Shown: positions 235-30,401 of the stretch, piece by piece
How positions within the stretch are numbered: the first letter of the stretch is position 1
How the letters are laid out: each line of letters begins with the position of its first letter
Sequence record: NC_073075
Source of the DNA: Escherichia phage ZCEC10
Direction: 5' to 3' (one strand)
Length of the DNA: 44,776 nucleotides
Translations under genes and position numbers: made by a program
Notes under the pieces: generated by a model
What the model was told of the DNA's origin: nothing
What the model saw: the letters and a program-made list of their open reading frames with translations, nothing else
Databases searched by the model: none

Positions 235-564
235 ATGAATGTAAACGACGCAATCGAAATGTTAACGAAGACTGTTTGCAGTGAGACAAGCCGGTCATGG
301 GCTTATACCGATGCCGTGGGTGCGGTGTTATTTGAAATCGAGCGCCTGCGCAGTGTCGAAAAAGAATTGCGCGCCCGGCTGGAATTACTCAACGGTACGG
401 CAGCAAGCAAGCTGCAAAAACACAATGAAGAAATGGAAGAATACAAAAAGCAGGTTATCCGTTTGCGCGCCGAGGGTAAATCGTGGGCGATGATTGCCGA
501 GTTGACCGGAATTAATCAGAGCACAGTGCGCTCTTGGGTACGCAATAATAAAACTTCTAAGTAA
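235..564 (+). CDS. Helix-turn-helix DNA-binding protein, putative transcriptional regulator
   Basis: 109-aa ORF; C-terminal GKSWAMIAELTGINQSTVRSWVRN is a classic HTH; GAGGG RBS upstream. Confidence 0.6.
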   Translation: MNVNDAIEMLTKTVCSETSRSWAYTDAVGAVLFEIERLRSVEKELRARLELLNGTAASKLQKHNEEMEEYKKQVIRLRAEGKSWAMIAELTGINQSTVRSWVRNNKTSK

Positions 565-574
565 GGCCACGGCA

Positions 575-2839: not shown

Positions 2840-2933
2840 ATTTTGCGCGCATTGGTTGCCATTTTGGGTGTTTTTATCCGGTCGTATTGGTTGCCGTGTA
2901 GTGTAAATATAGTGAATAGTTATGCAATAAAAC

Positions 2934-3110
2934 TGCATAAAGTAAGCGGGACAGAAAGCGGGACAAACAAGGGGCGGGACAAAGCGGGACAGCACCCCCG
3001 TCCCGCCCCGGATGGCGCGGCCTGGCGAGGAGCGGGACAGCGGGACAGCACCCCAGTCTTTCAGACTAGACGGGGGGTCAATGGCCCCCCTCGTCTGAGA
3101 CTGCATAAAA
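2934..3110. repeat. Iteron-rich GC repeat R1 (six GCGGGACA(A/G) units plus long imperfect hairpin), paralogous to 20084..20253
   Basis: About 90 percent identical by eye to the second copy; both begin TGCATAAAGTAAGCGGGACAG and end in the hairpin cagactagacgggggg...cccccctcgtctgagactg. Confidence 0.8.
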
Positions 3111-3263
3111 TCCGGGGATTGCAAAATACACGGCAGCAGGATGCGAATCGCGGTCGTGGGCGAACTAGGCAACCAATGCGATATGTATTATGTGGAGTGA
3201 AAAACGCAGTTTGCAGCCACAGCAGATAGCGATCAACTTTTTCATGCGCGTGATTAATATTGG

Positions 3264-3292
3264 TTGCACTTGACCCGGCACCTTGCTATATT
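3264..3292 (+). promoter_or_regulatory. Sigma70-like promoter (TTGCAC-17-TATATT) flanked by two ATTGGTTGCAC motif copies
   Basis: -35 TTGCAC 3264..3269, 17-nt spacer, -10 TATATT 3287..3292; downstream gene starts at 3320. Confidence 0.5.
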
Positions 3293-3319
3293 GGTTGCAC
3301 ACCAACAGGAGGGCAGAAC

Positions 3320-3499
3320 ATGAAAACCGAAATGGTTAATAAGCGCGAAATCAAGATCGGCGATACGGTAGTCCACAACGGGGAGCTTCGCACTGTGTGC
3401 AAGCGGGCGTTTAGCATAGATGAATTTATGGGCCTGCTACTTTGGGGCGACAGCTATCGTTTAGGGCATAAACTGGTTGAGAGGGTTACGGAACTATGA
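3320..3499 (+). CDS. Hypothetical protein (59 aa)
   Basis: ATG preceded by AGGAGGG RBS; stop overlaps next gene start (ATGA). Confidence 0.45.
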   Translation: MKTEMVNKREIKIGDTVVHNGELRTVCKRAFSIDEFMGLLLWGDSYRLGHKLVERVTEL

Positions 3500-3801
3500 A
3501 AGCACTAATCTGGAATTACACAATGGCCGTGGCAAAGCTGGACGAAGCGAAGGCACTCAACGGCAACGTAGATCAGGCGCTTCAGGTTGCGATAATGGCA
3601 CATCAATCAATCCGGAGCGCGCTTTATGGTATGGACGCCAGCCTGGACGAACTGAAGCCGTTGCGTATGGCAATCCACGAATACGCGATGGCATTCTCCC
3701 GTGAGCGCCTGGCCTATCGCTTCGGTATTGGCGATAAGGCAGTGACAAACGTCGCCCGGATTAAAGCCCAGCGCGAACTATTCGCCCAGCTTGCGAAATA
3801 A
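3496..3801 (+). CDS. Hypothetical protein
   Basis: 101-aa ORF, translationally coupled to upstream gene. Confidence 0.55.
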   Translation: MKALIWNYTMAVAKLDEAKALNGNVDQALQVAIMAHQSIRSALYGMDASLDELKPLRMAIHEYAMAFSRERLAYRFGIGDKAVTNVARIKAQRELFAQLAK

Positions 3802-3810
3802 GGGGCCAAA

Positions 3811-4080
3811 ATGAGCCGTAGGCGCGCCAAACAGCTTTCGTGGCATATTCCCCTGCATTGCATACGAATATGGGCTGAGAATGCGAATGCGGGCGAATCG
3901 GTATTCTGGTGCTATCGCGATGACGTGAAGCCACTGACGCAGACTCGCTACTTGCACCAGTTTGCAGCACAACACGATTTCAGGGTGCGGACTTCCTTGC
4001 AACCAATGGGGGTCCGTATTACATTACGCCGGAAGCCCGCCGTTGAGAGGGTAGGCAAACACTGGAGACTGGCAAAATGA
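3811..4080 (+). CDS. Hypothetical basic protein
   Basis: 89-aa ORF, RBS-like GGGGCC upstream. Confidence 0.45.
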   Translation: MSRRRAKQLSWHIPLHCIRIWAENANAGESVFWCYRDDVKPLTQTRYLHQFAAQHDFRVRTSLQPMGVRITLRRKPAVERVGKHWRLAK

Positions 4081-4241
4081 ACAAGCAACCTGAACGCTGG
4101 CGGAGTAAGGCCACGCGACTGACTTACTTCGTGACAGAAGAAGCAAACGGCAACGTGACTATTTCACACCCTAAGTGTGGTACTCGACGCACTATCTCGC
4201 GCCTCACATTAGTTCGTAACTACAGGAGATTGACAGAATGA
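4077..4241 (+). CDS. Hypothetical small protein (54 aa)
   Basis: ORF below the track cutoff; ATGA overlaps with both neighbours. Confidence 0.3.
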   Translation: MNKQPERWRSKATRLTYFVTEEANGNVTISHPKCGTRRTISRLTLVRNYRRLTE

Positions 4242-4780
4242 AATTACTATTTCGCCGTAAGCACGATGGCAAAATCCTGAAGCCGAGCCAGACCCTGGAT
4301 TCCTACGTCCGCCTACAAAACGCGGCAGGCAATCGGGTGTGGCGGGCGCCGAAACACACGCTGCCGCAGTTCTTCGACGTACTCACGCACGATATTGAGC
4401 GCGGCGATGTGCTGCGTGATATCCGCGACGGGCAACTGTGGATCGTGGGGTATGTTGGTTTTTACCGCATTCGTATGCAGACCCGCGCGGGTGGAGTTGC
4501 GGGCAACATACAGAGGGGTATGACCTACTTCGAGCTGGTCAACTACGAGCGCGTAGGCCGCAAATACTGCCTGCGCAACCGCCAGCCGCATGAGCGCGCT
4601 ACTTACGACGCTACCCAGGTGCAATCTAAAATTCGCCATGCCACGCGTGAGATAGTCAATCGCTTTGATGCCGTGACGAATGCACAGCGCCAGGCGCGGG
4701 AATACGGCGTGGGATTCATCCGTGTCGAACAAGACGGCAGCATGAACGCCATTGACCCGCGCTCGGTGATTCTGAAATGA
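4238..4780 (+). CDS. Hypothetical protein
   Basis: 180-aa ORF with AGGAG RBS 7 nt upstream; opposite-strand ORF 4313..4786 judged a shadow. Confidence 0.6.
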   Translation: MKLLFRRKHDGKILKPSQTLDSYVRLQNAAGNRVWRAPKHTLPQFFDVLTHDIERGDVLRDIRDGQLWIVGYVGFYRIRMQTRAGGVAGNIQRGMTYFELVNYERVGRKYCLRNRQPHERATYDATQVQSKIRHATREIVNRFDAVTNAQRQAREYGVGFIRVEQDGSMNAIDPRSVILK

Positions 4781-4914
4781 GCGCAACTATCCGTGATATG
4801 CTCATGCATAACCGCTTTGAGATAGGCGGTAGGGTGTTTCGCAATTACTTCGTGGCGCGTGCCTGGGCGCGCCATATTGGAAAACCAGAGGGGGCAATAC
4901 GATGCTACACGATT
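4777..4914 (+). CDS. Hypothetical small protein (45 aa)
   Basis: ATGA overlap with upstream stop; low confidence. Confidence 0.25.
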
Positions 4915-4972
4915 TGATATATTGGTTTGGATTGGCCTGCGCGGTACTCCTGATCGGTGTCATGGGGCGTTG
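4901..4972 (+). CDS. Possible 23-aa transmembrane mini-ORF, paralogous to the N-terminus of the next gene
   Basis: MLHDLIYWFGLACAVLLIGVMGR with AGAGGGGG RBS; resembles MIHDVIYWFGMASMLCMVTGVLG of the 4996 ORF. Confidence 0.25.
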
Positions 4973-4995
4973 ATTATTAGTCTGGTTAAATACCT

Positions 4996-5295
4996 ATGGA
5001 GCAGATTATGATTCATGATGTGATTTATTGGTTTGGTATGGCCAGCATGTTATGCATGGTTACGGGAGTGCTGGGCGCAATATGGGTATTCCTAGTATGG
5101 CCTGCGGTGGAAGCTGCCAGCATTACCCGGATGACATTCCAGATATACAAGCGCCGTGGAATCACGGAGCACCCGACCAGGTTGCGCATGTGGTGGCTGT
5201 GGTATCGGGATATGATAGGCGGGCGAACATTCGAAGCCGTCCGGTCGAGTGGATGGGAGTGGAAAGGCGTCGGCAAGTGGTCCGTTTTCGATTAA
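4996..5295 (+). CDS. Small membrane protein (single N-terminal TM), possible lysis regulator
   Basis: 99 aa, hydrophobic N-terminus, basic and Trp-rich C-terminus. Confidence 0.5.
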   Translation: MEQIMIHDVIYWFGMASMLCMVTGVLGAIWVFLVWPAVEAASITRMTFQIYKRRGITEHPTRLRMWWLWYRDMIGGRTFEAVRSSGWEWKGVGKWSVFD

Positions 5296-5314
5296 TTATG
5301 CAAGCGTGATATAG

Positions 5315-5347
5315 TCCCAGTGAGCTAAAACTTACTGGGACTTTTTT
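5315..5347 (+). terminator. Rho-independent terminator
   Basis: 9-bp stem cccagtgag/cttactggg (1 mismatch) followed by CTTTTTT. Confidence 0.55.
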
Positions 5348-5638
5348 ATGGATAAGCTAAACGAGTGGTTATTCGCCCTTGCGTGTCTTGCTGGTGGCTT
5401 CGTGGGCGCACGCATTCACGGCGAGGCAACGAAAGGGCCGTTGAACTTCGTTTTATATGTCGTAGTTGGCTTCCTGTGTGCCATATTTGGTGCGCCAGCT
5501 ATTGCCGAGTGGTCTGGTTTGTCTGGCGAGCGCACTGTCGCCGGTTTGGGCTTCGTAACTGCCATCTTCTGGATGCCAATCGCCGACCGGATCCGGGAGA
5601 CAATTGCGACGCTACACCTTCCGGGGGGCGCAAAATGA
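5348..5638 (+). CDS. Holin-like membrane protein
   Basis: 96 aa with two or three hydrophobic segments, immediately upstream of endolysin. Confidence 0.55.
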   Translation: MDKLNEWLFALACLAGGFVGARIHGEATKGPLNFVLYVVVGFLCAIFGAPAIAEWSGLSGERTVAGLGFVTAIFWMPIADRIRETIATLHLPGGAK

Positions 5639-5880
5639 TTATCTCCGTCCTGTTGTTTGTTATCATAGGGGCTTCGTCCCTGTTTAACGTGTATGCGCCG
5701 TCCGTTCAGGATGGCTTCTTCGGTCGGGTGTTATATCTGCTAACAGCAATGACCTGTATTGTCGGGCTGTTGCAAACGGGAGACGTATCTGATGCCACCT
5801 GGACCGCGTTAATCTGGCTGTTTGCATTGCGCACGCTGCGCAATGCTGTTTTAAATGGGGTAAAACATGCGATTCAGTGA
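5635..5880 (+). CDS. Second small membrane protein (holin or antiholin candidate)
   Basis: 81 aa, two hydrophobic segments; ATGA overlap upstream and overlap with endolysin start. Confidence 0.5.
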   Translation: MIISVLLFVIIGASSLFNVYAPSVQDGFFGRVLYLLTAMTCIVGLLQTGDVSDATWTALIWLFALRTLRNAVLNGVKHAIQ

Positions 5881-6358
5881 CAACGGTCTAAGATTTACGG
5901 CAGCATGGGAGGCTTTCAGCCCAGTGCCGTATTTCGCGACTAAGAAAGAGCAGGCCCGCGGCCTGTATACCTGGGGCTATGGTCACACCGGCACTAATCC
6001 GCCACGAAGCATTACCCGTGCGGAAGCACTGGAGCTACTCAAGCGCGATGTGGCATATGCCGAGAACTGGGTGAACAAGTACGCACACCCGAGCATCAAT
6101 CAGGCGCAATTCGACGCGCTGGTGGACCTGGTAATCAATGCCGGTCCTGGTCCGATCATGCCGGACGACGTAGCCGGTGATTTCGACGATGCGATCCGCC
6201 TGGGCGACTGGGCAAAGGTGCGGGCTATACTGCCACAATTCCGCAAGCAAGGTGGGGAAGTGCTGAAGGGGTTAGTCCGTCGAGCAATCGGCAGGCAGGC
6301 GCTATTCGATGGTAAGCAGTGGGACGTTGCCGAGAAGATCGGACGTAACGCAGCATAA
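5867..6358 (+). CDS. Endolysin, GH24 lysozyme family
   Basis: 163 aa with lysozyme-like motifs (YTWGYGHT...NAGPG). Confidence 0.8.
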   Translation: MRFSDNGLRFTAAWEAFSPVPYFATKKEQARGLYTWGYGHTGTNPPRSITRAEALELLKRDVAYAENWVNKYAHPSINQAQFDALVDLVINAGPGPIMPDDVAGDFDDAIRLGDWAKVRAILPQFRKQGGEVLKGLVRRAIGRQALFDGKQWDVAEKIGRNAA

Positions 6359-6374
6359 TACGGGGTAACACAGT

Positions 6375-6782
6375 ATGTTAAAAAGTATTCTTGATCATAA
6401 CGCCGACGCGCTCGCCGCGCTGGCTAAAACCGAAGACCCAGGCGCACGCGCTATTGTAGCGGATACGATCAGCCATGCGGGGGTGTTTGGCGCAAGCCTT
6501 CCGGGTCCGAAACCAGAGGTGAAAGTGACAAGCGCCACGGTAACGGTAGCTCCCGAGGCGGTTACAATCGGCACCCCGGCGAAGGCTACTGCGGCGGTAC
6601 AACCGGCAGGGGCGACCAATAAATCCGGCGTGTGGGTCAGCGGGTCGCCGACCATTGCCACCGTGGATGCTTCTGGCAATATCACGGGTAAAGCACCTGG
6701 ATCTGTCGATATTATTTGGGTGGCTAAGGATGGAAGCGGGGTGTCGGGCCGCAAAACGGTAACTGTGGCAAACGCAGAGTAA
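6375..6782 (+). CDS. Bacterial Ig-like (Big_2-type) domain protein
   Basis: 135 aa; C-terminal TVTVAPEAVTIG...ATAAVQP...TIATVDASGNITGKAPGSVDIIWVAKDGSGVSGRKTVTV matches the Big_2 beta-sandwich pattern. Confidence 0.55.
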   Translation: MLKSILDHNADALAALAKTEDPGARAIVADTISHAGVFGASLPGPKPEVKVTSATVTVAPEAVTIGTPAKATAAVQPAGATNKSGVWVSGSPTIATVDASGNITGKAPGSVDIIWVAKDGSGVSGRKTVTVANAE

Positions 6783-6787
6783 TGAGC

Positions 6788-6815
6788 AAGCCCGCCGTAT
6801 TGGCGGGCTTTTTAT
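6788..6815 (+). terminator. Rho-independent terminator
   Basis: Stem agcccgcc/ggcgggct with loop gtatt, followed by TTTTTATT. Confidence 0.75.
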
Positions 6816-6900
6816 TGTTCGACCTGCGACCAATTAATATCCCATACTGCGGTCGCCGTGATATATTGACCGCGGACAATCTGAATCAGGAAGATATGCA

Positions 6901-8043
6901 ATGCACCCGCAAACTAAAATCACCGACGAGCAATTGATCGCCGAGTTGCAATCCGGCACTACCGCGAAAGAGATTGCGAAGAAGTACGGCCTTTCCCTCC
7001 GAAATGTCTACATGCGAAAAGCCCGCCTTTCGAAGAAAGGGATTGGTCACGGCAACGATGCCGTAATCCGTAAGCGCGTTGCCGATGGCTTCGGCGTTAA
7101 GCGCGTATCCGCCCTGGTGCGCGGCAATGGCGAGGAGGTCATGTCCTGGGTCATCACCGAGCAGGACAAGGAGCGCCAACTCGAGGCAATGCGCGCCGTT
7201 GTCGAAGGGATGAACAGCGAAATCACACCGGCAGCGCCAGTAAACGCCCCGCCAGTACCGATCCAGGCGCTCGACTTACTCAACCTGTACACCGTGTCAG
7301 ACTTCCACCTGGGCATGTTGGCCTGGGGCGAGGAGACTGGCGAAGACTGGGATATGGCGATTGCCGAAGACCTGTTCTACCGCTGGTTTGTCGAAGCCTT
7401 CGCACGCGCACCAGATGCAGGCACTGCCGTAATTAATATCCTCGGTGATATGGCGCACTTTGATAGCCTTGATGCCGTCACACCTGCCAGCGGTCACATA
7501 CTGGACGCTGACACCCGCTACCAGAAACTGGTCCGATACATGATTCGCATGGTGCGCAACGTAGTCGAACTGGCGCTGCAAAAACACCACAAAGTCAAAC
7601 TGCTAATCGTCCAGGGGAATCATGACGAGTCGGGTATGATTTGGCTGGCTGAGATGTTCAATACTCTGTACGAGAACGAGCCGCGCGTCGATGTGGATAC
7701 GTCCCCTGACGTCTACAAAATGGTGCAGCACGGCAAGACCACGCTATTCTTCCACCACGGGCACAAAGCGCGATTCGATGCGATCGAGCAGGTTATGATT
7801 TCTAAATTCAGACAGGCTTTCGGGTCCAGTGAGTACAGCTACGCGCACGTAGGCCACTTGCACCACCAGAAGATTGTAGAATCCCGCAACATGATTGTTG
7901 AACAGCACCGAACACTCGCCGCGAAAGACGCATATGCCAGCCGTGGTGGTTGGATGTCCGGTCGCAGCGCAAACGTCATCACCTACAGCGCCAACTACGG
8001 CGAAGTAGCGCGCTTAACCATTAGCCCGGAAATGTTGAAGTAA
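6901..8043 (+). CDS. HTH domain fused to a calcineurin-like metallophosphoesterase
   Basis: 380 aa; N-terminal HTH (TAKEIAKKYGLSLRNVYMRKARL); metallophosphatase motifs DFHLG, GDMAHFD, QGNHDE, HHGHK, GHLHHQ. Confidence 0.7.
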   Translation: MHPQTKITDEQLIAELQSGTTAKEIAKKYGLSLRNVYMRKARLSKKGIGHGNDAVIRKRVADGFGVKRVSALVRGNGEEVMSWVITEQDKERQLEAMRAVVEGMNSEITPAAPVNAPPVPIQALDLLNLYTVSDFHLGMLAWGEETGEDWDMAIAEDLFYRWFVEAFARAPDAGTAVINILGDMAHFDSLDAVTPASGHILDADTRYQKLVRYMIRMVRNVVELALQKHHKVKLLIVQGNHDESGMIWLAEMFNTLYENEPRVDVDTSPDVYKMVQHGKTTLFFHHGHKARFDAIEQVMISKFRQAFGSSEYSYAHVGHLHHQKIVESRNMIVEQHRTLAAKDAYASRGGWMSGRSANVITYSANYGEVARLTISPEMLK

Positions 8044-8062
8044 CGGCGACCCGTAACCCTCC

Positions 8063-8089
8063 CAGCCTGCCGATTTGGTGGGCTTTTTT
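8063..8089 (+). terminator. Putative rho-independent terminator
   Basis: Imperfect stem agcctgcc/ggtgggct followed by TTTTTT. Confidence 0.45.
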
Positions 8090-8094
8090 GTGCC

Positions 8095-8103
8095 TGTTAT
8101 AAT
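8095..8103 (+). promoter_or_regulatory. Possible extended -10 promoter element (TGtTATAAT) upstream of terminase small subunit
   Basis: TGTTATAAT at 8095..8103 about 70 nt upstream of the ATG at 8174. Confidence 0.35.
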
Positions 8104-8173
8104 CCCAATTAGATGGCAGGGCCGTCTCCTATGTTGCCGATGGTCGGCGCATATGCACAAAAGGGCTTATATC

Positions 8174-8725
8174 ATGGCAGAAATCAAAGTTAAGGGCCGA
8201 CGCGCCAAACTGGACGGACGAGTGGCAGTAACCCCGCGCCGTAAACCAGGCGAGCAAACAGAACATACCAATCTCGGACCTGAGATCGAATATGGCAAGC
8301 GTCGTAAAGGCGGCAAATGTGGGCGCCCTACTGACTACCGATCCGTTTACTGCGACCAGCTTCGCCGCTATTTTGCCGACGCCGACGCCTGGCAGGTAAA
8401 CTACTCCGATAAAGGCGCTGCGCAAGTAATCCCCCGCAACAAAATGCCAACCTTCGGTCGATTTGCCGCGGAAATCGGCGTGGGCGTAGCTTGCCTGTAT
8501 CGCTGGGCGCGTGCGCATGAGGAGTTCGCCGAGGCGATGGCGGACGCTATGGAGTTGCAGAAAACATTCCTGATGGAAGCTGGCGGCGTGACCATCGCGG
8601 CAGGCTTCGCTACGTTCCTACTTAAAGCCAACCACGGCGTCCGCGATGATGTTCCACTGGATGACGACGAAGATGATAACGGCGACGTCGTTGTGGAACC
8701 TACCGGCAAAGGCCAGGGTGAGTAA
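8174..8725 (+). CDS. Terminase small subunit
   Basis: 183 aa directly upstream of and overlapping the large terminase; HTH-like segment PTFGRFAAEIGVGVACLYRWARAHEEFAEA; acidic C-terminus. Confidence 0.6.
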   Translation: MAEIKVKGRRAKLDGRVAVTPRRKPGEQTEHTNLGPEIEYGKRRKGGKCGRPTDYRSVYCDQLRRYFADADAWQVNYSDKGAAQVIPRNKMPTFGRFAAEIGVGVACLYRWARAHEEFAEAMADAMELQKTFLMEAGGVTIAAGFATFLLKANHGVRDDVPLDDDEDDNGDVVVEPTGKGQGE

Positions 8726-10110
8726 TGCGTAACTATGCGGCAGAACATCGCGCCCTTGAACGAGCGATCGCAAAGCGAAACCGACCGCCGCGCCCGACAC
8801 GCGTTGCGCAGGCAGTCCGCCTTTACCAGCCTGATTGCCTTCCCCACCAGGTTGAACTACTGCGCGACACGAAGACTAAAATCCTCGGCCTGTGTTCCGG
8901 CTTCGGTGGCGGCAAGTCATGGGTTGCGGCGAGAAAGGTCATCCAGCTTCTGACACTGAACCCTGGTCATGACGGCATCGTGACCGAGCCGACTATCCCA
9001 CTCCTGGTTAAAATCATGTACCCGGAATTGGAAAAGGCGTTTGACGAGGCTGGCTTCCGGTGGAAGTTCAATAAGCAGGACAAGATTTATAGCGTTCTGG
9101 TGAAAGGAAAATGGACCCGCGTTATCTGCGAGTCAATGGAGAACTACACCCGCCTAATCGGGGTTAACGCCGCGTGGATTGTTGCCGATGAATTCGATAC
9201 CACGAAGCAAGACGTCGCGATGGCGGCATATCACAAATTGCTTGGTCGTCTGCGTGCTGGCTTGGTGCGCCAGTTCGTCATCGTGTCCACGCCTGAAGGC
9301 TTCCGGGCGATGTACCAGATTTTCGAAGTGGAGAAGGATAGCCAGAAGCGTTTGATCCGGGCGAAGACTACCGATAATCACCACTTACCGGCAGACTTCA
9401 TCGACACGCTGCGCAGTCAGTACCCGGCTAACCTGATTGATGCGTACCTGAACGGCCTGTTTGTCAACCTTACGTCTGGCGCGGTGTACAAGATGTTCAA
9501 CCGGGAGGAGAACGCCAGCACCGAAGAAGTGCAGCCGGAAGACACGCTGATTATCGGTATGGACTTTAACGTCACGAAAATGGCGGCGGTCGTGTACGTC
9601 CGACGGCAGCGCATCACCGAAAACAAGGAGTTCCGCGACGAGATACACGCAGTGGATGAATTTGTGGACCTGTTTGACACCCCGGCTATGATTGAGGCGA
9701 TCGAGGAGCGCTACCCCGATCATTGTGCTGCCGGTCGGGTCGTCGTTTACCCGGATAGCAGCGGCAAGTCCCGCAAGACTGTCAACGCATCGTCGTCAGA
9801 TATCGCACAACTGGAAGACGCGGGCTTCGAGGTGGAGTACGACAGCGTTAACCCACCTGTGAAAGACCGATTGATCGCGATGAATACGATGATGTGCAAC
9901 TCGAAGGGCGTGCGCCAGTATTTTGTCAACCTGGATAAATGCCCTACACTAGCGAAATGCCTGGAACAGCAGGTTTACGACCTGAAGAAAGGCGAGCCGG
10001 ATAAAACCGCTGGGGTGGACCACATGAACGATGCCGCGGGCTATCCAATTGCGCACCTGTTCCCAGTAATTCGTCCGATCGCCGTTGTTCCAACTGTAGA
10101 CTTCTACTAA
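8725..10110 (+). CDS. Terminase large subunit
   Basis: 461 aa; Walker A-like LCSGFGGGKSW, ATPase and nuclease layout, position between terS and portal. Confidence 0.9.
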   Translation: MRNYAAEHRALERAIAKRNRPPRPTRVAQAVRLYQPDCLPHQVELLRDTKTKILGLCSGFGGGKSWVAARKVIQLLTLNPGHDGIVTEPTIPLLVKIMYPELEKAFDEAGFRWKFNKQDKIYSVLVKGKWTRVICESMENYTRLIGVNAAWIVADEFDTTKQDVAMAAYHKLLGRLRAGLVRQFVIVSTPEGFRAMYQIFEVEKDSQKRLIRAKTTDNHHLPADFIDTLRSQYPANLIDAYLNGLFVNLTSGAVYKMFNREENASTEEVQPEDTLIIGMDFNVTKMAAVVYVRRQRITENKEFRDEIHAVDEFVDLFDTPAMIEAIEERYPDHCAAGRVVVYPDSSGKSRKTVNASSSDIAQLEDAGFEVEYDSVNPPVKDRLIAMNTMMCNSKGVRQYFVNLDKCPTLAKCLEQQVYDLKKGEPDKTAGVDHMNDAAGYPIAHLFPVIRPIAVVPTVDFY

Positions 10111-10121
10111 GGAAAACGACC

Positions 10122-11642
10122 ATGACCGTTAACGTTGACAACCAGCACCCACTATATGCGCGCATCGCGCCAGAGTGGAAGATGATTCGTGACTGTGTAG
10201 CAGGCGAGCGCGCCGTGAAGGCGTGTGGTCCTTTGTACCTGCCTCATCCCGCCAGTGGCGATAACACTGACCCGAAAGCACGGGCGCGGTATAAGGCGTA
10301 CAAGCAACGCGCTGTATTCCTGAACGCCACCGCCCGCACACTTAACGCGCTGTTAGGCGTTGCCTTTGCTAAACCGGTAAGTCTGGACCTTTCCGGGGCG
10401 ATGGCTGACCTGATTGACGACGTAGACGGCAGTGGTATGCCGCTGCCGCAACTCCTGCGCGGTGCTATGTCGGAAGTGCTGCAATCAGGCCGTGCGGGCT
10501 TTATGGTTGACTACGACCGCCAGGCGCATTTTGATGAACTGGGTAACGTAGTGCCGCAGACAGCCGCCGAGATGGCGTCACACCGCCCGCTTATCCGCTT
10601 ATATACGGCAGAACAGATCATCAACTGGCGGCAGACCCACGGCGTCGATACGCTGATTGTTCTGAAGGAAACGGACGAAATCAGCACCGAAGACCCGGAC
10701 GACTTCGCAAACCACGAAGTAACAATCTGGACCGAGCTTCGCATGATTAACGGTGCGGCACACGCCCGCCGCTGGTTTTATAATGCGGACACGTCCGAGG
10801 TGCAAATGGACTTGCCGCGGGGGTTTACCCGTACCGATCTTGTGCCGCTGGTGGATGCCGCCGGTAAGGCGCTGACACAACTCCCGTTTTGCTGGTGTGG
10901 TGCGGTGGACAACAACGCAACGCCGGACGCCGCGCCGCTGGCTGATATTGCGTCCATCAACATTAAGCACTACAACGCCGAAGCGGACGTCGCCGAGATT
11001 GCGCACATAGTGGGCCAACCAACCCTGGTTGCGACGGGCTTGACTCAATCATGGGCGGACAAAAACCTGAAAGGCGGCATCGCGCTCGGTGCGACTAAGG
11101 GCGTTATCCTGGGCCAGAACATGGACGCTAAACTGATCCAGGCGGAGGAGCGCAACTTGTCGGTTGCACTGTGTGAGCGTCGCGAATTGCAAATGGCTAA
11201 ACTTGGTGCGGCCCTGGTTGAGAAGGGGACTGCACCTAAGACGGCAACTGAAGCGGCCTACGATGCGCAGACTGATAACAGTATCTTGTCCCTGATTGCC
11301 GGTAACGTTGAGAAGGCTTTCAACCGCGCGTTGCAAATCGTCCAGCTATTCACGGGAGACACCGCCGACCAGCGTGTGACGCTGAATAAGTTCTACACCG
11401 AAATCACGGTTGATGCGCAGCTTATGACCGCGATGATGTCGGGGGTGCAGACTGGCACGGTCCGCCTGGCCGATTTCATCAAGTGGATGATGGCGCAGGG
11501 CGTCATCGACGACTCGCAAACCGTCGAGCAGGTGGAAGACGAATTGCGAAATCAGAATCCATTGCCTCAAATGTCCCCTGATGCGGTAGAATCTACCGAA
11601 GAAGACCCGGACAAGGTAGCGGACAATGGCGAAGACAATTAA
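10122..11642 (+). CDS. Portal protein
   Basis: 506 aa immediately after terminase, acidic C-terminus. Confidence 0.8.
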   Translation: MTVNVDNQHPLYARIAPEWKMIRDCVAGERAVKACGPLYLPHPASGDNTDPKARARYKAYKQRAVFLNATARTLNALLGVAFAKPVSLDLSGAMADLIDDVDGSGMPLPQLLRGAMSEVLQSGRAGFMVDYDRQAHFDELGNVVPQTAAEMASHRPLIRLYTAEQIINWRQTHGVDTLIVLKETDEISTEDPDDFANHEVTIWTELRMINGAAHARRWFYNADTSEVQMDLPRGFTRTDLVPLVDAAGKALTQLPFCWCGAVDNNATPDAAPLADIASINIKHYNAEADVAEIAHIVGQPTLVATGLTQSWADKNLKGGIALGATKGVILGQNMDAKLIQAEERNLSVALCERRELQMAKLGAALVEKGTAPKTATEAAYDAQTDNSILSLIAGNVEKAFNRALQIVQLFTGDTADQRVTLNKFYTEITVDAQLMTAMMSGVQTGTVRLADFIKWMMAQGVIDDSQTVEQVEDELRNQNPLPQMSPDAVESTEEDPDKVADNGEDN

Positions 11643-12729
11643 TCAATATATGGCGGATCGAATGATTCGCCGGCACATCTTCACCCAGCGCCTGAGCAAT
11701 GACCAGGCGCGGAGGGTGCTGGCTATGTGGGAGAAGTTCCGGCCCACGTTACTGGGTAAGCTGACCGAGTTACTTGATGGCAAAAAGTCCATGAACAACA
11801 AGGCACTTACCACACTATTAACGCAACTCGACAAGACCGTAAAAACGGAACTGCGCGCCGAGTTTAAAGTGCTGGCGGAGCGCCTTCAGGAGTTCGCCGA
11901 CACCGAGGCTGATTATCTCGCTGACACACTAACGGCAGCGATCCAGCCCGTTGTCGCCGTACCCGCTGTTGAAGTAGTTGGCGTTGTTACCGGCGCGCAG
12001 ATTGCAGCGACGGCAATGAAAAACCCGTTCCAGGGTAATACTATGATGCAATGGCCTGATTCCCTTTCCGAGTGGACCAGGACGCAGATCGGCAATCAGG
12101 TGCGCGCCGGATTCATCCAGGGCAAGCCAACGATGGAAATTATCGCGGACGTGAGGCGCGCGCTCGGCGGTCGTAGTGCGCAAGCAATCTCAAGCGTTGT
12201 TAAGTCCGCGGTCAACCACTATGCGGCGACCGCCCGCGAATTAATGGTAAAAGCTAATGACGATATTCTCGAAGGTCGCCAATGGTTGGCTACATTGGAC
12301 ACGCATACTTCTCCCATGTGCCAGCTACGCGATCGCCTGTTTTATCCGGTTGATGTTACTCCCGACACCAAAGGCAAGCGCGGCGGGAAAGTGGTGGCTG
12401 GATCACAATATGGCGCTGGTCCGGGCAAGCTGCATTATTGCTGCCGTTCGACGGAGACGTGGACAGTTAAGGGCATGGAAGATTGGCCCAGTGGTAAGCG
12501 TCCGGCACTGAAGGCTGAAGCGGGCAGATTGCTGAGTGAGCAGGTCGACGCGCAGACTGATTTCTTCTCATGGGTGCAGCGCCAGCCGCGCCATATTCTG
12601 GAGGAATTATATGGAGTGCAGCGCGCCGACCAGATTATGCGCGGCGTGAAAGTGCCGAAGATGTTCACTGACACCGGCGAACTGATGACTATTGCACAGC
12701 TTAAAAACCGGGGGTTATGGCGTGATTAA
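11626..12729 (+). CDS. Head morphogenesis / minor capsid protein (Mu F / SPP1 gp7-like)
   Basis: 367 aa following portal with start overlapping portal stop. Confidence 0.7.
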   Translation: MAKTINQYMADRMIRRHIFTQRLSNDQARRVLAMWEKFRPTLLGKLTELLDGKKSMNNKALTTLLTQLDKTVKTELRAEFKVLAERLQEFADTEADYLADTLTAAIQPVVAVPAVEVVGVVTGAQIAATAMKNPFQGNTMMQWPDSLSEWTRTQIGNQVRAGFIQGKPTMEIIADVRRALGGRSAQAISSVVKSAVNHYAATARELMVKANDDILEGRQWLATLDTHTSPMCQLRDRLFYPVDVTPDTKGKRGGKVVAGSQYGAGPGKLHYCCRSTETWTVKGMEDWPSGKRPALKAEAGRLLSEQVDAQTDFFSWVQRQPRHILEELYGVQRADQIMRGVKVPKMFTDTGELMTIAQLKNRGLWRD

Positions 12730-13051
12730 ATATGCAGCGATTGGACTGGTTATCGGTCTGGCGGTAGGATTCTGGCTGGGTGACTCCTATCGCGCTGGCG
12801 TAGTGGCGGAGGCGGCGCAAGAAGCGCAAGCCAAAGCCCAACGGCAGCAAACTAAAGTTGTTGAGCGCTCCGTGCAGGCAGAACAAGCCCGCGACGTGGA
12901 ATACCGGACTATCACGAAAGAGGTTGTTAAATATGTTACGCGCCCTAACCGCCCTGATTGTAGTTTTGATGCTGAGCGCGTGCGGATCAAGCAACGTGCC
13001 GTTGATGCCGCTAACGGAGTCGGCACTGCGACCGCCGTGCAAGTTCGATAA
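12722..13051 (+). CDS. i-spanin (Rz-like); start uncertain (GTG 12722 or TTG 12692)
   Basis: N-terminal TM AAIGLVIGLAVGFWLG followed by a charged coiled-coil region; contains an embedded out-of-frame lipoprotein gene. Confidence 0.5.
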   Translation: MIKYAAIGLVIGLAVGFWLGDSYRAGVVAEAAQEAQAKAQRQQTKVVERSVQAEQARDVEYRTITKEVVKYVTRPNRPDCSFDAERVRIKQRAVDAANGVGTATAVQVR

Positions 13052-13163
13052 CCCGTCCGCAGACCCCGACGAGGATTTGATGATTGACGTGAAAAATATG
13101 GAATGCGGGGCGAAGCTGAGGGCGCAGGTCCTGGAGTTGCAGCAAATAATTAAGGGGCCGTAA
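12933..13163 (+). CDS. o-spanin (Rz1-like lipoprotein) embedded in/overlapping the i-spanin gene
   Basis: 76 aa, signal peptide with lipobox LSAC, Pro-rich mature part; RBS AAAGAGG. Confidence 0.55.
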   Translation: MLRALTALIVVLMLSACGSSNVPLMPLTESALRPPCKFDNPSADPDEDLMIDVKNMECGAKLRAQVLELQQIIKGP

Positions 13164-13177
13164 TGGCCCCCTTTTGT
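13153..13177. terminator. Bidirectional rho-independent terminator between convergent genes
   Basis: Stem ggggcc/ggcccc with loop gtaat, AT-rich on both flanks. Confidence 0.7.
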
Positions 13178-13941
13178 TAGCGCGGAATACCGCAGATTTC
13201 GTTTAACGTCTTCACGTCCAGCGCCACCGCCGTGGACTTCAGCTTATCCGGGTATGGAATAAACTGTTCAACTTCAGGCCATGCTTTGATCAGCTTCTTA
13301 TCGGTATTGTGCATATCCAGCACGCCGGTAACAGTAAGTTTGAACGCGTCATACTTAGCTCGCAAATCGCGGCGGGCCTTGTCGTTACGGTCTAGTCGCT
13401 TGCAGAAATCGTGGTCCGCTGGGTAGTCTACACGACCGCGCGGAAGATATATCGGCAGCGCTTTCCCGTCCTCGTCGACTTCGCACACTGACGCGAGCAT
13501 AACTGTCTCGAACCCCGGAACGATATCGCCGAGATCAGGAGCGAGCTTATCCATATATTTCTCTTCCCAGTACCCGCGACGTACTCGGAATCGGTGTCCG
13601 TCTCCGCTCAATGACAGTGTGCGCACATTTCCGCCTGCGTTGATTTCGAAAGTGGCGTCGTAAACGCTGCCGATGCCTTTTGGGCGGTCGGCGTTATAAC
13701 TATACGTCGCCTTGTTGGTGTATACGCATACTCCGTACATCTGCGACGGGTCATCGCCGATTGCTTCAATGCGCGCGAGTAGCTCGGCGAATGTGCGAAT
13801 GCCTTCCGGCATACAGTCCAGCGTAATGTCATACGCCAGGTCGCGTGAGTCCATCATTATTGATTTGGCTTCGGTCGCGATTTCGTGGTCGCGCAGGATG
13901 TTAGCCAGAATCTGGTTTTTAATGTCTTTCGTCAGTCTCAT
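13177..13941 (-). CDS. Hypothetical protein (254 aa), antisense island within the head module
   Basis: Long clean ORF on the minus strand; no recognisable motifs. Confidence 0.7.
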   Translation of the reverse strand: MRLTKDIKNQILANILRDHEIATEAKSIMMDSRDLAYDITLDCMPEGIRTFAELLARIEAIGDDPSQMYGVCVYTNKATYSYNADRPKGIGSVYDATFEINAGGNVRTLSLSGDGHRFRVRRGYWEEKYMDKLAPDLGDIVPGFETVMLASVCEVDEDGKALPIYLPRGRVDYPADHDFCKRLDRNDKARRDLRAKYDAFKLTVTGVLDMHNTDKKLIKAWPEVEQFIPYPDKLKSTAVALDVKTLNEICGIPR

Positions 13942-13980
13942 TTGTGTGTCCTCGTGGTGGGGGCTTTCGCCCCGTTTGGT

Positions 13981-14295
13981 TTAGTTAAACTTGATGTTGC
14001 CGCCGGTGGAAGTTAAGCGAGCGCATACAGCTTCAACGGCATCGACGCACATGAAATCGTTAAAGGCTTCTACCAGGGCTTTGATGAAAGATGCCGGAAC
14101 CAGACCGCAAGCCGGATTGTCGAAGGTTGCAGAATTGATTGCGGCCTTCGCGGCTTCAGTAGCGTTCATGCTCTGGCACAGATTCAACGCTTCGGCGTTA
14201 CGCATTGCGTGAAAGGTAAAGGTATTGGCTACGGTAGCTTTATTGAAACGGGTCATTGCTACGTCTACTGGAGTTGCTACGGTCATGTTAGTCAT
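13981..14295 (-). CDS. Hypothetical protein (104 aa), first gene of the antisense island
   Basis: ATG at 14295 with AAGGAAAA RBS; the longer track ORF extending to 14748 is an N-terminal shadow over the scaffold gene. Confidence 0.55.
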   Translation of the reverse strand: MTNMTVATPVDVAMTRFNKATVANTFTFHAMRNAEALNLCQSMNATEAAKAAINSATFDNPACGLVPASFIKALVEAFNDFMCVDAVEAVCARLTSTGGNIKFN

Positions 14296-14330
14296 TTTGT
14301 TTTCCTTCATATCTCTGTTGGTGTGCAACC

Positions 14331-14359
14331 AATATATGCAACCAATACGAGGATTGCAA
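14331..14359 (-). promoter_or_regulatory. Sigma70-like promoter for the antisense island (TTGCAA-17-TATATT, minus strand)
   Basis: Minus-strand -35 TTGCAA (14354..14359), 17-nt spacer containing ATTGGTTGCA, -10 TATATT (14331..14336). Confidence 0.5.
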
Positions 14360-14449
14360 GCGAATTTTGCGATTATTTTTATCGCTGATAATATTAGAAG
14401 CGTGAAGTCGAGCGGGTGGCCCGCTCTGCCACAATCCCAGGGGGATAGC

Positions 14450-15154
14450 ATGAAACTTACTAAAGCAGAATATGACGCGTTGCCGGAAGGTATGAAGGCG
14501 CTTTTTGTTGCCGATGGCGACGGGTATAAATCAACGTTCATGACCGCAGAAGAAGTACAGGCGGAAATTAAGGGTCTGAAAGACAACAACGCGAAGCTGG
14601 TGAGCGAGAAGAAAGCAGAAGCCGAACGCCGCGCAGAAGCTGAGCGCCTTGCGAAAGAGAAAGAGGAAGCCGCCGCGCGCAAAAATGGCGACCTCGAAGC
14701 GATCGACAAGTCCTGGAAAGATAAGTTTGCGAAACACGAAGCAGACACATCGGGAAAAATCGAAGCCTACCGCAAGCAGATCCACGATCTAACCATCGGC
14801 AGCGCTGCCAAAGACCTGGCGTCGAAGCTGTTCGGTAAGAATGCGGGCATCATGCAACGCCACGTAATGGACCGCCTGACGCTGGAAGACGGCGAAGACG
14901 GCAGCTTGAAAGTGCGAGTATTGCAGGATGGCAAACCGTCCGCGCTGACTATGGAAGAGCTGGAAAAAGAGTTCCGTAATAACGCCGATTTTGCATCCGT
15001 CCTGGCTGGCACGCCAGCAGGCGGCGCGCCTAGCAAACCGACGCAGGTTGTCGAAGATGTGAAGTCGAAAATTACGATGGGCCATAGCTTCGGTATCACC
15101 GATCTCACCAAACAGGCGGGGGATATCATCGCGAAGATGGGCGACGACGAGTAA
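14450..15154 (+). CDS. Scaffolding-like protein
   Basis: 234 aa, Ala/Glu/Lys-rich coiled coil, directly upstream of major capsid gene; RBS AGGGGG. Confidence 0.6.
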   Translation: MKLTKAEYDALPEGMKALFVADGDGYKSTFMTAEEVQAEIKGLKDNNAKLVSEKKAEAERRAEAERLAKEKEEAAARKNGDLEAIDKSWKDKFAKHEADTSGKIEAYRKQIHDLTIGSAAKDLASKLFGKNAGIMQRHVMDRLTLEDGEDGSLKVRVLQDGKPSALTMEELEKEFRNNADFASVLAGTPAGGAPSKPTQVVEDVKSKITMGHSFGITDLTKQAGDIIAKMGDDE

Positions 15155-30164: not shown

Positions 30165-30190
30165 AAAAGCCCCGTTCGGGGCTTATTTGC
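30164..30190. terminator. Bidirectional terminator between convergent genes
   Basis: A-run, stem gcccc/ggggc with loop gttc, then T-rich tract. Confidence 0.65.
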
Positions 30191-30401
30191 AGGTTGTTCT
30201 TTTGAAGTTGTCGATAGACACATACTGGAAGTTGAATGGGTATCCCGCCCGTAACATTTTATGACCGCTAACGTCTGCAACCCCAAACACAGGGACGGAA
30301 TACTCCATACCACTATTCATGTATGTTGCGTCGCAGATTTTAGACGGCATGTCGGCACAACCGGACAAAAGAACCGCACAAATCATAATTAAAGTTTTCA
30401 T
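30183..30401 (-). CDS. Small lipoprotein, candidate Cor/Llp-like superinfection exclusion protein
   Basis: 72 aa from the ATG at 30401 (AGGAG RBS); signal peptide with lipobox LLSGC; antisense gene beside the receptor-binding genes. Confidence 0.55.
   Translation of the reverse strand: MKTLIMICAVLLSGCADMPSKICDATYMNSGMEYSVPVFGVADVSGHKMLRAGYPFNFQYVSIDNFKRTTCK

Follow-up and report, generated by a model that had tools for sequence, protein, structure and literature searches.

Overlapped i- and o-spanins of the Jersey families have been listed for the phages EK99P-1, EP23, HK578, JL1, SSL-2009a, and SO-1, with the entries from EP23 to SO-1 forming a shorter subfamily in Fig. 5a of that work (Kongari et al., 2018; PMC6139136). 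The spanins of phage lambda comprise the type II inner-membrane protein Rz and the outer-membrane lipoprotein Rz1, with periplasmic cysteines, and the Rz1 gene is wholly embedded in the +1 frame of Rz within the S-R-Rz/Rz1 cassette. In phage T7, the spanin genes gp18.5 and gp18.7 are situated between the terminase genes and are unlinked to the holin and endolysin genes. The T4 genes PseT.3 and PseT.2 are likewise a precedent for spanins unlinked to holin and endolysin (PMC6139136), and the separation of spanin and lysis genes was stated explicitly for phage Schulenberg (PMC6763661). Both the T4 and T7 proteins belong to spanin families other than the one described here and, in addition, the T4 genes have a separated architecture whereas the present pair is overlapped.

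A spanin locus was analyzed in the 44,776-nucleotide sequence of Escherichia phage ZCEC10 (NC_073075), hereafter the window, which is a complete Dhillonvirus genome in rotated form and gave a 100% match to Escherichia phage ZCEC11 (Dhillonvirus) over a 2,351-base query (positions 11600-13950). The locus very probably (probability about 0.93) carries the genes for a two-component spanin that belongs to the overlapped Jersey family and provides this Dhillonvirus with its normal outer-membrane disruption function; the functional assignment draws on protein signals, family membership, and gene neighborhood in relatives. The pair consists of two overlapping out-of-frame ORFs directly 3' of a MuF-like head morphogenesis gene (11626..12729, + strand; phrog_241 “head morphogenesis,” 1.6e-115, and a weak Phage_Mu_F match), and lies within the head gene block because the scaffold and major head genes come after it at about 14.2-16.35 kb; both placements had been given correctly in an earlier sequence-only reading of this DNA. 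The GTG start codon of the i-spanin overlaps the stop codon of the MuF-like gene (GTGATTAA), which suggests translational coupling. The pair was found at the same position in 150+ Dhillonvirus records and is universally conserved among them.

The i-spanin gene (12722..13051, + strand) codes for 109 amino acids and matched phrog_2536 “Rz-like spanin” with an E-value of 4.5e-37. Its GTG start at 12722 and a GGGGG Shine-Dalgarno sequence 7 nt upstream were conserved in 20 relatives. Position 12692, from which the gene had previously been taken to begin, is merely where the open frame has its first TTG; this codon was lost in two relatives and was followed by an in-frame stop in the relative L023, such that it was rejected as a start. 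The product is a predicted type II inner-membrane protein with Lys3 ahead of a transmembrane domain at about residues 4-20 (hydropathy maximum 2.33 at residues 5-19; Kyte-Doolittle, 15-residue mean), followed by an 87-amino acid polar periplasmic part rich in Ala, Gln, Arg, and Glu with a single periplasmic cysteine, Cys80, that was invariant in relatives. The C-terminal tail was dimorphic among relatives, giving proteins of either 109 or 102 amino acids. Single-sequence AlphaFold modeling placed helices at residues 5-72 and 84-97 with low confidence (pLDDT 58.6, pTM 0.18), a weak indication of two helices only. Thus, of the description “membrane-anchored coiled-coil protein” in the first reading, the membrane anchor was upheld by the N-terminal hydrophobic helix while the model is too uncertain (pLDDT 58.6) to establish that the periplasmic domain is helical or a coiled coil. 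Purifying selection was frame-specific, with dN/dS values of 0.04-0.23 in the i-spanin frame vs. 1.3-2.7 in the +1 frame.

The o-spanin gene (12933..13163, + strand) codes for 76 amino acids in the +1 frame relative to the i-spanin and matched phrog_5672 (2.4e-26) and phrog_1267 (9.5e-12), both described as “Rz-like spanin.” By regular expression and hydropathy, which define the lipoprotein call, its N-terminus (MLRALTALIVVLMLSAC|GSS) carries the lipobox LSAC that had been noticed earlier in the out-of-frame ORF, with Cys17 as the predicted lipidated residue and Gly rather than Asp at +2. The mature protein would comprise 60 amino acids and is Pro-rich with cysteines at mature positions 20 and 42. 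The two genes share 119 nt (12933..13051, + strand), in which the C-terminal part of the i-spanin is encoded together with the signal peptide and N-terminal linker of the o-spanin, and the o-spanin stop lies 112 nt beyond that of the i-spanin. The pair had been presented as a textbook embedded one, but the o-spanin gene starts inside the i-spanin gene at 12933 and its stop at 13163 is past the i-spanin stop at 13051; the architecture is therefore of the overlapped class and differs in this respect from the full embedding in lambda. Variable columns in the shared 119 nt were distributed over the i-spanin codon positions as 16/38, 5/39, and 16/39, with a clean third-position pattern absent from both frames within this region.

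That the i-spanin-like ORF is the only genuine gene and the lipoprotein ORF a chance untranslated frame might be suspected from database records, as many of them omit the o-spanin, a short frame overlapping another gene, or give it a wrong start (“hypothetical” in ZCEC11, truncated to 52 amino acids in the EK99P-1 RefSeq record, and absent in phage welsh). Against this, the 108 nt of non-overlapping sequence used by the o-spanin frame alone had dN/dS values of 0.05-0.21 in its own frame vs. 2.0-3.4 in the i-spanin frame, and both ORFs were intact in 20/20 distinct relatives, all of which also retained the o-spanin ATG, an AAGAGG Shine-Dalgarno sequence, a lipobox of the form [LM][ST]AC, and three cysteines. 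In distant phages, too, the i-spanin homologue is paired with a homologous lipoprotein, with identities of 36% to the o-spanin of L026 and 48% to that of K1ind2. A chance frame is consequently of negligible probability and already refuted at the sequence level. Strong lipoprotein-type N-termini were found for only two candidates genome-wide, the o-spanin and the Cor protein (30183..30401, - strand), and this scarcity together with frame-specific purifying selection on both ORFs indicates that the pair is more than a coincidence.

Compared to the Jersey family, nothing of substance was different. The proteins are the same (i-spanin 99% identical to that of JL1 and spanin DNA 96% identical to EK99P-1), as are the architecture, the conserved cysteine pattern, the i-spanin with its two helices and short linker, and the variability of the C-terminal tail; GenBank records of EK99P-1, Bas84, Oekolampad, and Opt212 also label the orthologues as spanins. 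Like Rz/Rz1, the pair has the signals of a type II inner-membrane protein and a +1-frame outer-membrane lipoprotein with periplasmic cysteines, but no Pfam match to lambda Rz (PF03245) or Rz1 (PF06085), nor any NCBIfam match, was obtained for either protein even at E<=1, with recognition coming from PHROGs alone. The pair is predicted to work like Rz/Rz1 but falls outside the lambda families by sequence. No published experimental test of this spanin family, such as complementation of lambda Rz/Rz1 amber mutants, was found.

Homologous spanins with shared conserved motifs (K1ind2 and S528) were also identified in the Guernseyvirinae, where Kagunavirus K1ind2, Jerseyvirus S528, and Schulenberg carry them after a MuF-like gene and before the scaffold gene. 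The same split was observed in K1ind2, with its holin-holin-endolysin genes about 7.7 kb upstream of the spanins and beyond the terminase genes. In contrast to the locus described here, the Guernseyvirinae i-spanins are longer (127-128 vs. 109 amino acids) and contain polyQ stretches, a Hoc-like decoration gene separates the MuF and spanin genes, and reverse-strand Nmad5 genes are lacking after the spanins. The pair has stayed between the MuF-like and scaffold genes although the MuF proteins have diverged to merely 25% identity, and in Dhillonvirus the MuF stop overlaps the start of the i-spanin. Functional need, as opposed to simple inheritance, is an unlikely reason for this fixed position; if it were the reason, linking spanin translation to a gene of early head assembly could, for example, control how much spanin is made, or when, without reference to the holin clock.

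The remaining lysis genes were identified at 5348..6358 as in the first reading. They encode two holins (5348..5638 and 5635..5880, + strand), which matched the PHROG “holin” families phrog_2359 and phrog_2508, and a soluble lysozyme-type endolysin (5867..6358, + strand; phrog_7 “endolysin,” Pfam Phage_lysozyme 2.1e-20). The i-spanin start lies 6.36 kb beyond the endolysin, in agreement with the roughly 6 kb originally proposed and unlike the contiguous lambda cassette. A different spanin beside the endolysin would have counted against the earlier claim; that place is occupied by a Big_2 Ig-domain protein (6375..6782) lacking a membrane or lipoprotein signal. A whole-genome search revealed no second spanin beside the endolysin or elsewhere, the other good lipoprotein being Cor, and a genome-wide lipobox scan gave no ORF of the unimolecular T1 gp11 type (N-terminal lipobox and C-terminal transmembrane domain), a type whose gene usually comes last in a lysis cassette.

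The distance from holin and endolysin, the location among structural genes beside reverse-strand Nmad5, and the presence in this phage of Cor as another small exclusion lipoprotein would suit a non-lysis membrane protein and lipoprotein moron, for example for superinfection exclusion or envelope modification, located in the head operon by chance. Such a role is highly improbable in view of the features found together in the pair, as a protein with an N-terminal transmembrane domain and an overlapping +1-frame lipoprotein with periplasmic cysteines available for disulfides constitute the defining spanin signature. Moreover, same-PHROG homologues were encoded directly 3' of a GH19 endolysin (L026 and L027) or a Hydrolase_2 endolysin (L028), and distant i-spanin homologues (39% identity) directly follow endolysin genes, showing that members of this family sit in classical, endolysin-containing lysis cassettes elsewhere. 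Assigning the pair to another function would leave the phage and its whole clade with no spanin, and its universal presence at one position is unlike typical morons.

The spanin reading implies the following sequence of events. The N-terminal helix of the i-spanin would hold it in the inner membrane, with a largely helical domain reaching into the periplasm, while the o-spanin, after export, would be lipidated at Cys17 and delivered to the outer membrane. The two proteins would bind through their C-terminal parts, with disulfides through the conserved cysteines probably stabilizing complexes that would bridge the periplasm across the meshwork of peptidoglycan. After release of the endolysin by the holins and degradation of the wall, these complexes would be free to act and may destroy the outer membrane by fusing it with the inner membrane, as in the lambda model. 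Their genes are placed at the 3' end of a terS-terL-portal-MuF string with i-spanin translation probably coupled to the MuF-like gene, and this position was probably inherited with a structural module common to Dhillonvirus and the Guernseyvirinae.

Expression of the spanin and holin-endolysin genes from separate transcription units, as proposed in the sequence-only reading, is plausible from terminator and promoter calls that are motif matches. A strong terminator-like hairpin (6788..6810, + strand; 10-bp stem, -20.9 kcal/mol, z -4.2) closes the holin-endolysin-Big_2 block and, in phage welsh, the sequence differs and still pairs via compensatory changes. Upstream of terS, a second strong hairpin with a T-run (8064..8084, + strand) was conserved in welsh, where a G-C pair replaces a G-U pair of the stem, and it is followed by the motif-level extended -10 match TGTTATAAT (8095..8103, + strand) located just before terS and also conserved in welsh. 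The motif TGNTATAAT has its single genome occurrence at 8095-8103 vs. 0.94 expected genome-wide, such that its weight comes from position and conservation alone. The region 8064..8103 is a candidate boundary and promoter for a terS-terL-portal-MuF-spanin unit.

A single long late transcript covering both gene sets, with a split that has no regulatory meaning, has a lower but appreciable probability. Every gene from 235 to 13163 lies on the + strand and the gaps are short, terminator read-through is common in phage late operons, and a two-hexamer scan gave no strong + strand sigma-70 match from 6358 to 12722, where the only hits were two 9/12 matches inside terL. The scan also gave no more sites than in shuffled sequences and none that was convincing upstream of the spanins. 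The conserved hairpins and T-runs with covarying stems at 6788-6810 and 8064-8084 and the conserved extended -10 motif argue against one transcript. This alternative concerns regulation only and is compatible with the spanin identity of the genes.

At the distal end, a consensus scan revealed a terminator-like GC hairpin that includes the o-spanin stop codon (13154..13170, both strands) and is common to a convergent Nmad5 gene, with folding energies of -13.4 kcal/mol on the + strand and -15.6 kcal/mol on the - strand. The hairpin and its T-run were conserved in all relatives examined, and as a motif-level terminator it would close the putative spanin unit, in line with separate transcription units. 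The reverse-strand genes that adjoin the spanin pair at this end, including the convergent Nmad5, are accessory-looking.

The spanin family and its split position are already catalogued for these Escherichia coli phages and the locus is real but ordinary; the layout, implied at first to be unusual, is shared across a large clade of phages and already in print, and the finding raises no new biological question. It is another example that spanins need not sit with the holin and endolysin, and this is consistent with the idea that spanins build up without harm until the peptidoglycan has been destroyed. For the engineering or assessment of therapeutic-candidate coliphages, it is relevant that the lysis set, though split, is complete. 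The locus is also of value for annotation, as many Dhillonvirus records have the spanins as “hypothetical,” mis-started, or with a truncated or mislabeled o-spanin, and the correct coordinates here are 12722..13051 and 12933..13163. In the ZCEC11 record, both spanin genes were annotated as “hypothetical protein” with longest-ORF starts.

A megablast of window:11600-13950 matched ZCEC11 (OK310512; genus Dhillonvirus; coordinate offset 3560) at 100% identity over that segment, and the ZCEC11 record, at 44776 bp, is as long as the window. The stretch is therefore a virulent HK578-like siphophage genome, complete but rotated. More than 130 further Dhillonvirus records matched the same segment at 90-95%. 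Directly 3' of the MuF-like head morphogenesis gene (11626..12729, + strand; phrog_241, 1.6e-115), where the sequence-only reading had placed it, lies a gene pair for which a function as inner- and outer-membrane spanins (i-spanin and o-spanin) is well supported by sequence comparisons. The i-spanin gene was assigned to 12722..13051 (+; 109 aa) since its GTG start and a GGGGG Shine-Dalgarno sequence 7 nt 5' of it were invariant among the relatives compared, whereas the TTG at 12692 that opens the longest ORF (119 aa), and from which the pair had initially been drawn, was absent in two relatives and followed by an in-frame stop in the compared sequence L023. The i-spanin start and the stop codon of the MuF-like gene overlap (GTGATTAA), suggesting that the two genes are translationally coupled.

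The o-spanin gene (12933..13163, +; 76 aa) has an ATG start preceded by an AAGAGG Shine-Dalgarno sequence. Its N-terminus (MLRALTALIVVLMLSAC|GSS...) bears out the earlier proposal of an out-of-frame lipoprotein with lipobox LSAC; the lipidated residue would be Cys17, and Gly at +2 leads to an expectation of sorting to the outer membrane. Among the 60 residues of the mature protein are seven Pro and two further Cys. It is encoded in the +1 frame relative to the i-spanin, sharing 119 nt and extending 112 nt beyond the i-spanin stop, so that the architecture is overlapped rather than embedded as in lambda. Pfam and NCBIfam scans recognized neither protein, with no Rz or Rz1 model matching even at E<=1; of the "textbook embedded Rz/Rz1-type pair" first described, the overlapping out-of-frame spanin pair stands, but not the embedded form or the Rz/Rz1 family.

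A chance lipoprotein frame was ruled out by comparison of 22 homologous 442-nt segments from the window, GenBank Dhillonvirus records, and IMG/VR contigs (80-100% identical, gapless, 20 distinct). Both ORFs were unbroken in all 22, and every segment kept the o-spanin ATG, the lipobox ([LM][ST]AC), all three o-spanin cysteines, and the i-spanin cysteine. Variable columns fell mostly at third codon positions of the respective frame, both in the segment coding for the i-spanin only (23/71, 12/70, and 45/70 for positions one to three) and in that coding for the o-spanin only (12/36, 5/36, and 23/37). Nei-Gojobori dN/dS against five relatives was 0.04-0.23 in the i frame versus 1.3-2.7 in the +1 frame for the former, and 0.05-0.21 in the o frame versus 2.0-3.4 in the i frame for the latter; these frame-specific low values indicate that both products are under purifying selection.

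Family assignment came from PHROGs, where the i-spanin matched phrog_2536 (4.5e-37) and the o-spanin phrog_5672 (2.4e-26) and phrog_1267 (9.5e-12), all labeled "Rz-like spanin." The overlapped "Jersey" i-/o-spanin families include EK99P-1, EP23, HK578, JL1, SSL-2009a, and SO-1 (Kongari et al., 2018; PMC6139136), and the i-spanin encoded here shares 99% identity with the JL1 protein. In the window's i-spanin, Lys3 precedes a hydrophobic helix that spans approximately residues 4-20 (Kyte-Doolittle 15-mer maximum of 2.33). The polar domain beyond it comprises 87 residues, is rich in Ala, Val, Arg, and Gln, and has one cysteine, Cys80. A low-confidence single-sequence AlphaFold model (pLDDT 58.6) placed helices at 5-72 and 84-97 around a conserved TRPNRPDCSFD linker. 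This agrees with the shorter Jersey subfamily (EP23 to SO-1 in the published figure), for which two helices, a linker with one predicted strand, conserved cysteines, and an extreme C-terminus that is variable and unstructured have been described (PMC6139136), but the model is no proof of a coiled coil. Owing to two lengths of its C-terminal tail, the i-spanin of Dhillonviruses has either 109 aa (ending ...GVGTATAVQVR) or 102 aa (ending ...RVGL or ...GIGN), a dimorphism recorded for window 13027..13051 and relatives L006-L008, L018, and L021-L023; it lies within the region common to the o-spanin frame and fits the published variable C-terminus.

A lysis role finds independent support in more distant homologues: in three IMG/VR contigs the pair adjoins an endolysin, so that members of the family also occur in classical lysis cassettes. 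In L026 (i-spanin 39% and o-spanin 36% identical to those of the window, matching the same PHROG families) and the closely similar L027, it lies directly 3' of a GH19-type endolysin, identified by a Pfam match in L026, and the endolysin stop codon overlaps the start of the i-spanin gene. In the weaker homologue L028 (i-spanin to phrog_2536, o-spanin to phrog_456, a different "Rz-like spanin" family), it follows a Hydrolase_2 (SleB-like) endolysin.

In the window, the holins (5348..5638, phrog_2359; 5635..5880, phrog_2508) and endolysin (5867..6358; Phage_lysozyme, 2.1e-20), all on the + strand, were confirmed at the site first proposed, and the i-spanin starts 6.36 kb downstream of the endolysin, in line with the 6 kb originally stated; the Big_2, phosphoesterase-like, terS, terL, portal, and MuF genes intervene. 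This split layout was found in all Dhillonvirus records examined and is not peculiar to ZCEC11. Kagunavirus K1ind2 has the same layout, with holin-holin-endolysin at 38693-39729, then terS, terL, portal, and MuF, followed by a Hoc-like gene, the spanins (4662-5157), and a scaffold gene, and Jerseyvirus S528 likewise has the spanins between head morphogenesis and scaffold genes. With MuF proteins only 25% identical between ZCEC11 and K1ind2, these comparisons identify the spanin position as an old, inherited trait of the structural module. The T4 spanin genes are likewise apart from those for holin and endolysin (Kongari et al., 2018; PMC6139136).

A second spanin was found neither in the gene next to the endolysin nor in a genome-wide scan for lipoprotein N-termini. 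The former (6375..6782, +; 135 aa) encodes a Big_2 Ig-like domain protein without targeting signal, and the only convincing lipoprotein N-terminus besides the o-spanin was that of the Cor superinfection-exclusion protein (30183..30401, - strand; 72 aa; lipobox LSGC, Cys15; phrog_1119, 3e-27), encoded on the opposite strand amid tail genes. The Big_2 product is named "major tail protein" in the ZCEC11 record; phage welsh has just the 55-aa N-terminal part (phrog_11068), which makes the Ig domain either dispensable or a recent gain. By analogy with studied spanins (PMC6139136), the i-spanin and lipidated o-spanin would bind via their C-terminal regions into complexes that span the periplasm and are restrained by peptidoglycan, and which, once holin-released endolysin removes the wall, would disrupt the outer membrane, with membrane fusion as the probable route. 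Spanins inert until wall removal would need no co-regulation with the holin, making the remote gene position unproblematic.

The + strand carries strong hairpin/T-run signals at 5313-5342 (-19.8 kcal/mol, z -6.2), 6788-6810 (-20.9 kcal/mol, z -4.2), and 8064-8084 (-12.3 kcal/mol), and both strands carry one at 13154-13170 (-13.4 kcal/mol on +, -15.6 on -), the last containing the o-spanin stop codon and conserved in all relatives examined. In welsh, the 6788 stem has changed sequence with pairing retained and the 8064 stem a G-U to G-C change. The extended -10 motif TGNTATAAT has a single genome copy, at 8095-8103, directly 3' of the terminator-like 8064 hairpin and 5' of terS, and is kept in welsh; chance alone predicts one copy in the genome, and only position and conservation give the motif weight. 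It is a candidate promoter for a packaging/head/spanin operon, and a terS-terL-portal-MuF-spanin transcription unit bounded at approximately 8095 and 13170 is a reasonable model. Separate transcription units for the spanins and holin-endolysin, as originally suggested, are rated no higher than plausible on this motif-level support, because all genes from cassette to spanins share one strand and transcriptional read-through is common. A 99-aa membrane protein gene (4996..5295, +; phrog_2531) lies just 5' of the 5313-5342 hairpin and the two holin genes.

Convergent with the spanin pair, and sharing the 13154-13170 hairpin, is a gene (13177..13941, -; phrog_1965, labeled function unknown) with a full-length Nmad5 ("nucleotide modification associated domain 5") domain (PF18757, 2.6e-57). 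This gene and a small ORF, also on the reverse strand, break up the Dhillonvirus head gene block at a spot empty in K1ind2 and S528. ZCEC11 annotates both strands at 13981..15154, where related records have only a short reverse ORF and the scaffold gene; the long reverse ORF (13981..14748, -) overlapping the scaffold gene region (14225..15154, +) is probably an over-annotation.

Catalogues and annotations of Dhillonvirus-type phages already cover the entire arrangement: orthologues are labeled i-spanin, o-spanin, or Rz-like spanin in GenBank for EK99P-1 (RefSeq), Bas84, Oekolampad, Opt212, and McMelon, and a 2025 paper on Dhillonvirus vB_EcoS_P78 placed the Rz-like spanin (ORF40) apart from holins and endolysin (ORF31-33). 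The remaining value lies in annotation fixes for ZCEC11, where both spanin genes are "hypothetical protein" with longest-ORF starts, and similar records. Errors in public spanin records were noted at L001 (4907..5065), L005 (6776..7271), and L003 (10093..10564): besides the ZCEC11 labels, the S528 i-spanin gene is mislabeled "o-spanin," and the welsh o-spanin lacks any annotation. In the EK99P-1 RefSeq record the o-spanin start is set too late (52 aa, lacking both signal peptide and lipobox), and truncated forms of this kind seem to underlie phrog_5672 (47 positions).
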